The notes beneath the pieces were generated by a model, which saw only the letters and a list, made by a program, of their open reading frames with translations, searched no databases and was not told where the DNA came from. A DNA stretch of 46,273 nucleotides from Escherichia phage PhiR29_1: sequence record PV340556.1; one strand, written 5' to 3'. Of this stretch, positions 39,804 through 41,472 are shown piece after piece. Made by a program: the position numbers and the translations under genes. Every line of letters starts with the position of its first letter. Position 1 is the first letter of the stretch.

Positions 39804-40387
39804 TGGCATTCAGAATGAGTGAACAACCACGGACCATAAAAATTTATAATCTGCTGGCCGGAACTAATGAATTTATTGGTGAAGGTGACGCATATATTCC
39901 GCCTCATACAGGTCTGCCAGCAAACAGTACCTATATTGCACCGCCAGATATTCCTGCTGGCTTTGTGGCCGTTTTCAACAGTGATGAGGGATCGTGGCAT
40001 CTCGTTGAAGACCATCGGGGAAAAACCGTCTATGACGTGGCTTCCGGCGACGCGTTATTTATTTCTGAACTTGGCCCATTACCGGAAAATGTCACCTGGT
40101 TATCCCCGGAAGGGGAGTTTCAGAAGTGGAACGGCACAGCCTGGGTGAAAGATGCAGAAGCAGAAAAACTGTTCCGGATCCGGGAGGCGGAAGAAACAAA
40201 AAACAGCCTGATGCAGGTAGCCAGTGAGCATATTGCGCCACTTCAGGATGCTGTAGATCTGGAAATCGCAACGGAGGAAGAAACCTCATTGCTGGAAGCC
40301 TGGAAAAAGTATCGGGTGTTGCTGAACCGTGTTGATACATCAACTGCACCTGATATTGAGTGGCCTACGAACCCTGCCAGGGAGTAA
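39803..40387 (+). CDS. tfa: Tail fibre assembly protein Tfa
   Basis: 194 aa directly following stf; C-terminal conserved region [17 protein letters not shown]...LLNRVDTS. Confidence 0.9.
40231..40343 (+). repeat. Direct repeat copy 1 (3' end of tfa), about 113 bp, about 90% identical to 41281-41393
   Basis: Both copies encode [17 protein letters not shown](T/R)SLLEAW(K/N)[12 protein letters not shown]; they bracket the ybcY-like methyltransferase gene. Confidence 0.85.
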
Positions 40388-40441
40388 TCATTGGGATTAT
40401 GCCGCAGCACGTCTTAAGCAAGAACGTGCTGCGGTTGGATG

Positions 40442-41110
40442 CTATTTTTTCCCTGAAGCGGAAAACATTACTACAGTACCTTGAACCTTGGTTTTAACAT
40501 TCTCGAAATGCTCTGAGAGTATATGTGTTAAGCCTTCTTCGGAATCTTTTGTGTTTGAAAAGATGCCTTTCTGATTGTAAATGCGCATCAGTTTTTGACC
40601 GAAGCTATTGTGCACAACTCCATCGCCAAGAATTGTGGCTCCGTATAGAGTTCCATCGTCAGTTAAGGCCTGCGCAGCATTGCGTATTACACAGCTTTTT
40701 GTAGATATATTTCCAGGCAGGCAGTGAAGAAGGTAAAACATGGAAATGGAATCAAATTGACCATGTAACGCCGCGGGATAAGGTTCAAAAACATCATGGC
40801 TAATTTTATGTTTAATTTTTGATTCCCCAGCCCTTGTAGATGCCGCGTTCAGGCTAGCTTCGTTCAAATCCATTAAAGATATCAGACTACTCTCAGGTAC
40901 GTGAGTAAGGTAAAACCCAGTTCCAACACCAATATCCAGATGGTTGTTACCTAAATGTTCCAGAAAGTGTGGAAGGAGGTGTTCCTTTGTAGGACATCCC
41001 CATGCAAGCCGATTTGATACTCCCAAAACCCACCAGTCATAAAGCTTTAGGGTAAGTGGTGTGTAAATTTTAGCCCCATCATCTGTGTTTTTTTTCATTA
41101 ATTTCACCAT
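40442..41110 (-). CDS. ybcY: Class I SAM-dependent methyltransferase (YbcY-like)
   Basis: Motif I LDIGVGTGFY; inserted between tfa and a tfa remnant, the arrangement I recall for DLP12 ybcY. Confidence 0.75.
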   Translation of the reverse strand: MVKLMKKNTDDGAKIYTPLTLKLYDWWVLGVSNRLAWGCPTKEHLLPHFLEHLGNNHLDIGVGTGFYLTHVPESSLISLMDLNEASLNAASTRAGESKIKHKISHDVFEPYPAALHGQFDSISMFYLLHCLPGNISTKSCVIRNAAQALTDDGTLYGATILGDGVVHNSFGQKLMRIYNQKGIFSNTKDSEEGLTHILSEHFENVKTKVQGTVVMFSASGKK

Positions 41111-41166
41111 GTTATAGTTTTATTTGTGAATTAAATCAATTATGGCGATGAATTACAAGGGGTTAA

Positions 41167-41472
41167 ATGCTGCCGCAGCATAGCGATATTGAAATAGCCT
41201 GGTATGCTTCGATACAGCAGGAGCCGAATGGCTGGAAGACCGTCACCACACAGTTCTACATCCAGGAGTTCAGTGAGTATATTGCGCCACTGCAGGATGC
41301 TGTAGATCTGGAAATCGCAACGGAGGAAGAAAGATCGTTGCTGGAGGCATGGAATAAATATCGGGTATTGTTGAATCGTGTTGATACATCAGTAGCTCTG
41401 GGTATGAAGCTGATTGTAACTCATGTTACAGTAACGGTTATTGCTATCTCGAAGGTGCAAAATGTATATTGA
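41167..41472 (+). pseudogene. tfaX: Tail fibre assembly gene remnant (tfaX-like; C-terminal Tfa segment fused to unrelated N- and C-termini)
   Basis: Only the central 37 aa match the Tfa C-terminus; flanks are unrelated, suggesting a recombination scar. Confidence 0.55.
41281..41393 (+). repeat. Direct repeat copy 2 (tfa 3' segment)
   Basis: See copy 1 at 40231-40343. Confidence 0.85.

Follow-up and report, generated by a model that had tools for sequence, protein, structure and literature searches.

An intact ybcY methyltransferase gene between a complete tfa gene and a tfa remnant in Escherichia phage PhiR29_1

The right end of the prophage DLP12 from Escherichia coli K-12 is annotated as tfaD, ybcY (a pseudogene), tfaX, appY, and ompT. 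The stretch of DNA analysed here, referred to as the window, is the 46,273-nucleotide record PV340556.1 of Escherichia phage PhiR29_1, and the locus in question is a segment of about 2 kb in which ybcY, encoding an S-adenosylmethionine (SAM)-dependent methyltransferase, lies between a complete tail fibre assembly gene (tfa) and a tfa remnant. This arrangement is already known, since it is the intact counterpart of tfaD-ybcY-tfaX in DLP12 (b0561-b0563), with which it shares the argU integration site, gene order and orientation, the repeat, the promoter hexamers of ybcY, and 96.8% DNA identity over 39949-41396. However, the prophage in the window is complete and matches an isolated phage, whereas DLP12 is cryptic; tfa is full length, whereas K-12 tfaD is truncated at its 5' end; and ybcY is intact, whereas the K-12 copy is a pseudogene frameshifted by a 2-bp deletion. 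The remnant is also cut 25 nt earlier than in K-12, is followed by an alpha/beta hydrolase gene instead of appY, and has a right half derived from another tfa allele. The locus is 100% identical to the chromosome of ECOR29, several O55:H7 chromosomes, and phage PhiR29_2 (PV340557).

Hendrix, Juhala, and colleagues reportedly described morons in lambdoid phages as independently transcribed cargo genes, such as lom and bor. Like them, ybcY is a single gene placed between the late genes or behind them, oriented independently of the late operon, different in GC content, and present or absent in otherwise similar phages; it also has a predicted promoter of its own, and the spacer that it shares with tfa holds a hairpin. 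Contrary to them, it is bracketed by homologous tfa sequence, which provides a homologous-recombination route for its loss. Haggard-Ljungquist in 1992 and Sandmeier in 1992-94 are likewise said to have described the mosaic tail fibre and tfa modules of P2, Mu, P1, and lambda, together with the Gin/Cin/Pin inversion segments. The likeness lies in the use of conserved tfa and fibre motifs as joints for the host-range modules of unrelated phages. In contrast to the inversion segments, the repeats here are direct, no site-specific recombinase is present, and the outcome is gain or loss of cargo and not a host-range switch. Taken together, we consider it likely that the locus combines a moron (ybcY), a tfa scar left by an unequal crossover, and a tfa segment acting as a homology patch.

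The direct repeat and the tfa remnant

The features of the locus, in window coordinates, are:

39803-40387, plus strand: tfa, complete tail fibre assembly gene of 194 amino acids, near lambda Tfa (Pfam Caudo_TAP, 2.7e-45)
40222-40342: left repeat copy, the conserved part of tfa that encodes the C-terminal helical trimerisation domain
40402-40434, no strand assigned: GC-rich hairpin in the 54-bp spacer of the convergent tfa and ybcY genes (-23.9 kcal/mol, z -5.35)
40442-41098 (annotated to 41110), minus strand: ybcY, class I SAM-dependent methyltransferase (Pfam Methyltransf_12, 3.8e-09; PHROG 2132, 7.9e-157)
41139-41111, minus strand: predicted sigma-70 promoter of ybcY, with TTGATT (41139-41134), a 17-nt spacer, and TATAAC (41116-41111)
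41167-41472, plus strand: chimeric tfaX-like open reading frame (ORF) of 101 codons, made of a small-gene N-terminus, a Tfa fragment, and 24 unrelated codons
41167-41270, plus strand: truncated 5' end (about 35-37 codons) of a phrog_3893-type small accessory gene (phrog_3893, 4.2e-07, residues 3-37)
41271-41391: right repeat copy, from the interior of a tfa gene, with 420 nt missing at the 5' end and 45 nt at the 3' end

A repeat search of the last 10 kb of the window returned a single strong direct-repeat family, pairing 40211-40342 with 41260-41391 (132 nt, 87% identity), which BLAST trims to 40222-40342 and 41271-41391 (121 nt, 90%, E ~4e-43). The longest perfect run is 40 nt (40244-40283), and identity falls to 33-38% in the sequence flanking the copies. 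An earlier reading of the same DNA, here called the original prediction, had described a direct repeat of about 113 bp, and its own coordinates (40231-40343) indeed give 89% identity over 113 nt. It had also recognised a complete tfa on the left and a tfa remnant on the right, in agreement with the profile matches: residues 72-192 of the complete protein cover positions 1-131 of Caudo_TAP, a full-length family match, whereas in the remnant ORF residues 31-77 alone match, at positions 75-121 of the 131. The remnant thus has neither the Tfa N-terminal domain nor the last 10 profile positions and is not a whole Tfa. In Tfa proteins, a variable N-terminal domain binds the fibre and a conserved helical C-terminal domain mediates trimerisation (PMC9608196); because the repeat encodes the latter, otherwise different tfa alleles share it at the DNA level.

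The ybcY cassette often adjoins inversion systems, though it is not one itself. A Pin-type serine recombinase gene is found immediately upstream of the cassette in PhiR68_2 (L005, 3354-4527), and a fragment of such a gene in JJ1887 (L018, 2983-4799). The locus could therefore be imagined as a decayed invertible segment of the Gin/Cin/Pin type, in which the remnant would be what is left of an alternative tfa' and ybcY a later passenger. This origin would account for the order stf-tfa-pin-ynaE-ybcY-tfaX in PhiR68_2 and for the layout of JJ1887, where stf-tfa is followed by an inverted tfa and fibre gene, the recombinase fragment, a tfa fragment, and then ybcY. We nevertheless regard it as extremely unlikely: the two copies are direct, as the original prediction had argued when it set the invertible segment aside, no recombinase ORF occurs from 36 kb to the attR, and this part of the window holds no inverted copy of tfa or stf. 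Moreover, the left edge of the remnant is fused to a non-fibre small gene and not to an alternative fibre gene, and in the relatives with inversion systems the ybcY cassette lies outside the inverted pair.

The N-terminus of the remnant ORF is 51% identical to a 79-residue ORF of Klebsiella phage Kp4882-3 (E 8e-6) and shows a weak 39% match to HK225_029 (HK225 gp029), a small gene located after the fibre genes and divergent from the minus-strand dinI moron. The reading frame runs on from the 5' end of the small accessory gene into the tfa fragment, and the two share 7 nt (CAGTGAG) at the junction. A divergent tfa 5' region was considered for this part of the ORF and ruled out, as it corresponds to the 5' end of a phrog_3893-type gene. 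The right end of the fragment, on the other hand, varies between contexts. Expressed in coordinates of the left copy, it falls at:

40342: this window, followed by the hydrolase region
40367: K-12 and PhiR68_2, followed by appY
40390, beyond the stop codon: potB-site prophage HUM3355
40436, stop codon and hairpin included: Rac-site prophages UPEC129 and JJ1887

The left junction is identical in all the remnant contexts, which points to a single origin. Between the window and K-12, the fragment is identical at 75 of 75 positions in its left half and at 32 of 46 in its right half, which sets the two remnants apart by an additional crossover within it.

We read the remnant as a scar of 121 nt from another tfa allele, and not as a gene. 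It could be objected that the tfaX-like ORF encodes a functional small protein, for instance a decoy of the Tfa C-terminus made by the lysogen to poison tail fibre assembly in competing lambdoid phages. The ORF retains the first conserved, helix-encoding part of Tfa's C-terminal domain, ORFs of this kind are gathered in PHROG 2341, and a sigma-70 promoter facing tfaX has been reported in K-12 (PMC3946193). However, the ORF is not conserved, as it ends after 61 codons at a TGA in K-12 and PhiR68_2 instead of after 101 and with an unrelated tail, its right-half alleles are 70% identical, and in other contexts 177-227 nt are retained, the ends varying. Neutral decay with repeated recombination would account for this pattern, and a functional small protein is highly improbable.

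The original prediction had explained the arrangement as a cargo insertion by recombination between tfa genes. This part of it does not hold: the locus is a conserved and long-annotated module, found in 3832 of the 5426 complete E. coli genomes and in viable phages, and an equal exchange between tfa genes would leave no duplicated tfa end. The fusion of the left edge of the remnant to an unrelated phrog_3893-type gene points instead to an unequal or illegitimate crossover of collinear phage genomes. In the simplest origin, the founding event would be one unequal crossover between two collinear lambdoid genomes, of which the donor would have carried stf-tfa-ybcY-small gene and the recipient would have been broken inside its own tfa. 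The remnant would then be joined on its left to the small-gene 5' end (about 37 codons) and on its right to the hydrolase-ompT cargo. From then on, the conserved segment present in every tfa would serve as a homology patch for RecA- or Red-type recombination. Crossovers in the patch, as seen in natural genomes, swap fibre modules leftward and accessory regions rightward and, in the appY-type allele, delete ybcY and leave a full-length hybrid tfa.

The ybcY gene and its expression signals

The minus-strand gene, described as ybcY-like in the original prediction, is the orthologue of K-12 ybcY, with 99% DNA identity. Its ORF is intact (40442-41110, 222 codons) and matches the Pfam families Methyltransf_12, Methyltransf_23, Methyltransf_25, and Methyltransf_11; the profile search proposed earlier thus supports the methyltransferase assignment, and the view of the gene as cargo stands, the degraded pseudogene that would have spoken against it not being what is found. 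Translation probably starts at the ATG at 41098 (218 residues) and not at the annotated ATG at 41110 (222 residues), because homologues are mostly 217-225 residues long, most commonly 218, and PHROG 2132 aligns with residues 5-222. The annotated ATG directly abuts the -10 hexamer, and a start at 41098 would leave a very short leader; alternatively, an upstream promoter, TTAACC-16-CATAAT, might provide another start site.

The hexamers of the predicted promoter are the same as those reported for the constitutive sigma-70 promoter of K-12 ybcY, where an H-NS site has also been placed in the ybcY/tfaX spacer (PMC3946193). On the other side of the gene, the hairpin at 40402-40434 is strong, although no run of T residues adjoins it on the ybcY strand. 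The cassette has its left edge here in PhiR68_2 and O157, where homology begins at 40402 and 40396, respectively. At 40360-40497, where tfa and ybcY converge, PGAP calls a 45-residue ORF across both gene ends; K-12-type records label it 'nucleocapsid protein', and it is probably spurious.

By these signals, ybcY is probably a moron: a cargo gene that would be transcribed on its own and that converges on the late operon. Two moron features are borne out by the data, namely presence or absence among collinear phages and an atypical base composition. GC is 0.41-0.43 at ybcY versus 0.51-0.62 in stf, the side tail fibre gene. The cassette is found in the isolated-phage deposits PhiR29_2, PhiR26_1, PhiR30_1, PhiR49_1, PhiR68_2, ev243, 2G7b, Turner, and Kati, while the gene is absent or deleted in Ayreon, CH4797, and the loci L021-L023 and L026-L029. 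In the complete E. coli genomes it is nearly always chromosomal, with a median of one copy, and the best match per matching record is at least 95% identical; the E. coli copies differ from that of the window by 0-2 nonsynonymous and 2-3 synonymous changes. In the literature, ybcY appeared only in lists (a promoter screen, a knock-out without phenotype under Hha overexpression, and the context of ompT), and nothing useful was found on tfaX/tfaD or on PhiR29_2.

Recombination at the tfa segment and loss of ybcY

The cassette (about 40402-41396) occurs at at least four integration sites: argU, the Rac/ompW site, prfC, and potB. What precedes ybcY differs between relatives, and several of the joints fall within the tfa segment:

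This window and UPEC129: complete tfa
ev243: tfa stub from 40268
Ayreon and HUM3355: tfa stub from 40242
JJ1887: tfa stub from 40290
PhiR68_2: tfa followed by pin and ynaE
O157:H7: tfa followed by a cluster resembling katN/yciEFG

The stub comes after a non-homologous fibre module in ev243, Ayreon, and HUM3355, and after the inverted fibre/tfa pair and the recombinase fragment in JJ1887. Across the genomes examined, at least eight independent joints lie within about 150 nt of the tfa segment.

Other cargo has been found in the same place. In Chlobot (L006, 5265-5984), a minus-strand glycosyltransferase gene follows tfa and is in turn followed by a homologue of window 40381-40441, so that the spacer after tfa appears to be a general slot for varied cargo genes. 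In O157:H7 FRIK804 (L019, 2290-4503), genes for a Mn-catalase, two ferritin-like proteins, and a general stress protein (yciE/yciF/yciG/katN-like) lie between tfa and ybcY. Elsewhere yciEFG are chromosomal neighbours of the Rac/ompW attachment site (L024), which looks like a capture of host genes followed by relocation.

The loss of ybcY was addressed by building the predicted recombinant junctions of the two repeat copies and searching them in all 5426 complete E. coli genomes. The appY-type allele has 561 carriers, and in nine genomes a single uninterrupted match spans its whole chimera; these fall into three identity classes. ybcY is missing from their loci, whose gene order is J-lom-stf-tfa-appY-ompT-envY, and mapping of single-nucleotide polymorphisms (SNPs) shows alleles of the upstream tfa to the left, and those of tfaX to the right, of the following crossover points:

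L021: crossover in 40244-40283, the 40-nt identical block; the tfaX TGA is inherited, and PGAP flags an internal stop
L022: crossover in 40310-40318; intact hybrid tfa
L023: crossover in 40337-40339; the left part is a PhiR68_2-type tfa

None of the hybrids has tfaX-type bases at the left edge of the repeat, and they are thus not ancestors of tfaX. On their SNP patterns, they are independent homologous-recombination events that removed ybcY, together with pin and ynaE where these were present, and either intrachromosomal deletion or exchange with an incoming phage may have produced them. The original prediction that the repeats could mediate the loss of the methyltransferase therefore stands for the appY-type allele, which acts as a repeat-mediated deletion cassette with nine genomes and three crossover points, and not for the hydrolase-type allele present in the window.

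The two alleles differ in what a deletion would do to Tfa. In the hydrolase type, the last 14 residues would be swapped for 26 unrelated ones, whereas the appY-type hybrid ends in a near-normal way (...VAPDIEWLIQP). The lack of hydrolase-type products may be explained by selection in an active phage against such an aberrant chaperone.

A separate route, not involving the repeat, is seen in Ayreon and CH4797, where 40477 is joined to 41137 with a 4-nt overlap and ybcY is lost. Both had been candidates for empty sites and were rejected as such, because the last 36 nt of ybcY and its promoter are retained. The Rac-site allele offers at least four genomes in which tfa is directly followed by the DUF4376 region.

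Several of these observations weigh against the combined explanation. The hydrolase-type deletion product was found in 0 of the 5426 genomes, even though 889 carry this allele, and its best coverage, 60%, corresponds to the ordinary remnant. The appY-type junction, the only one queried in phage records, was not found there, few of these records carrying the cassette. The Rac-site genomes with tfa directly before DUF4376 have mosaic SNP patterns, and may be either never-inserted ancestors or deletion products. The promoter evidence from K-12 comes from an in vitro RNA polymerase binding screen that also lists H-NS at the site (PMC3946193). Finally, the founding crossover is deduced from the anatomy of the junctions, and no exactly matching donor or recipient was found.

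The enzyme, its prophage, and the meaning of the locus

YbcY has the hallmarks of a class I SAM methyltransferase, with a Rossmann-like seven-strand fold, a glycine-rich motif I for SAM binding, and a strand 2 that ends in an acidic residue. Homologues with 56-68% identity are found in Enterobacter, Salmonella, Citrobacter, Klebsiella, Yersinia, Erwinia, Pantoea, Aeromonas, and Shewanella; in the Enterobacterales Enterobacter, Salmonella, and Yersinia, each stands alone on the chromosome amid unrelated genes of non-phage character, and no conserved neighbour gene was seen beside them. An exhaustive profile search gave 418 cluster representatives at E <= 1e-30, almost all of 215-240 residues, and the only fusions among 1750 family representatives were uninformative N-terminal extensions and one RCC1 fusion. 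Thirty homologues, down to 56% identity, share 60 invariant columns, all of which the window protein retains, including the motifs YDWWVL, AWxC, HLDIGVGTG, D77, HD, DS, YLLHCLPG, GAT, HN, and YNxKGIFxN.

The AlphaFold2 model of YbcY, built from the homologue alignment, has a pLDDT of 90.7. Its top Foldseek matches in the PDB are the phosphatidylethanolamine (PE) N-methyltransferase 8ys9, JHAMT, polyketide synthase C-methyltransferases, CysG, PfPMT, NodS, and SgvM, while sequence and profile searches of the PDB return JHAMT and UbiG only (1e-5 to 1e-3). In the model, YbcY resembles PmtA (8ys9), the Plasmodium phosphoethanolamine methyltransferase, JHAMT, and UbiG in its Rossmann core and N-terminal helical lid. 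Databases of families add little to this picture: NCBIfam gives sub-threshold matches to CpaM and RquA only (17 bits), the YbcY family carries no functional assignment in PHROGs, BFVD viral structures return generic methyltransferases only, and PADLOC gives no significant defence-system match (mad2 only, E 0.0033, 14 bits).

By fold and motifs, YbcY is inferred to be a small-molecule or lipid methyltransferase. To be set against this class are the weak and flat structural similarity on which it rests (15-21% identity) and the tRNA methyltransferases CmoA, Trm9, and METTL6, which score nearly as high structurally. A phage DNA methyltransferase acting against restriction or setting an epigenetic mark might also be expected here, since orphan DNA methyltransferases are frequent in phages and YbcY has the SAM-binding Rossmann fold. 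This is, however, very unlikely. A regular-expression search found no [DNS]PP[YFW] motif (the DPPY/NPPY type) and no PC[QH] motif (the PCQ type) in YbcY, and its 218 residues are too short for a target-recognition domain. In addition, neither Pfam nor NCBIfam matches a DNA methylase family, the PADLOC match is marginal, the structural neighbours are small-molecule and lipid enzymes with no DNA methyltransferase among the top ones, and the solitary homologues have no restriction partner. More speculatively, YbcY might act in lysogenic conversion by N- or O-methylating the head-group of a host envelope lipid, a small metabolite, or a toxin. We consider this specific role unlikely; it is suggested by the PE and phosphoethanolamine N-methyltransferases among the best structural matches, and its product could have been missed because ybcY is frameshifted in K-12, the main strain for E. 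coli lipid and metabolite chemistry.

Within a complete lambdoid prophage at argU, the tfa-ybcY-remnant stretch opens the accessory ('b') region as its first module. The other landmarks of this prophage are:

41-1204, minus strand: integrase gene, at the left end of the window
36903-39803, plus strand: stf, side tail fibre gene of 966 amino acids (Pfam phage_tail_N, 2.9e-70, and Collar, 6.6e-12; PhiR29_2 annotation)
41392-41654, no strand assigned: transition into the hydrolase-type accessory region; the appY-type allele (K-12, PhiR68_2) is homologous up to 41396
41599-41634: terminator-like hairpin downstream of the hydrolase gene
41655-43139, minus strand: alpha/beta hydrolase (TAP-like) cargo (Pfam Abhydrolase_1, 3.3e-33, and Abhydrolase_4, 2.5e-14; PADLOC PDLC01094, 5.3e-55)
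43326-44279, minus strand: ompT (omptin protease) cargo, from the annotation of the identical O55:H7 locus and of PhiR29_2
46179-46221, plus strand: attR core, a copy of the 3' end of the tRNA-Arg gene argU (exact 43-nt match, 0 expected by chance)

With the integrase gene at one end and the attR core at the other, the window represents a complete prophage at the DLP12 site. The remnant, the hydrolase gene, and ompT could still be thought of as leftovers of an older argU prophage lying beside the present phage, in which case ybcY would not belong to one mobile genome. K-12 DLP12, a defective mosaic, shares its right end with the window, GC falls from tfa onward, and the founding crossover could well have involved a resident defective prophage. 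This alternative is, however, quite unlikely. The attR core lies beyond all these genes and the whole segment is therefore inside the prophage, and PhiR29_2 (46,180 bp; stated host E. coli C) and ev243 (45,560 bp) carry ybcY, the remnant, the hydrolase gene, and ompT between the fibre genes and int/att. Being inside isolated-phage genomes, the segment is packaged and travels with the phage today, and ompT, despite its chromosomal look, is packageable phage cargo.

Among the neighbours, the hydrolase (494 residues) has a signal-peptide-like N-terminus and a TAP-like C-terminal domain, and its gene sits where K-12-type prophages carry appY; PDLC01094 is a PADLOC candidate defence family. Genes for an XRE-cupin regulator and a GNAT acetyltransferase, at 44760-45944 between ompT and attR, are missing from K-12 DLP12. 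Within stf, 37200-38300 is a long Ala/Ser/Thr-rich stretch with imperfect repeats in multiples of 21 nt (families D2-D11) and a very high AT skew.

The overall value of the locus is modest. Its gene ybcY is well defined and easy to test; it is intact in about 70% of the complete E. coli genomes and carried by viable phages, yet a pseudogene in K-12. Deletion hybrids exist among the 5426 genomes where the normal end of tfa is restored and none where the end would be aberrant, a contrast of alleles that offers a simple test of selection on the Tfa C-terminus. Should YbcY prove to be a conversion enzyme, the flanking tfa homology would make the trait recombinationally portable among E. coli lambdoid prophages. 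More generally, the C-terminal coding segment of tfa is a concrete shared recombination joint, through which host-range modules and cargo regions are swapped and cargo is removed.

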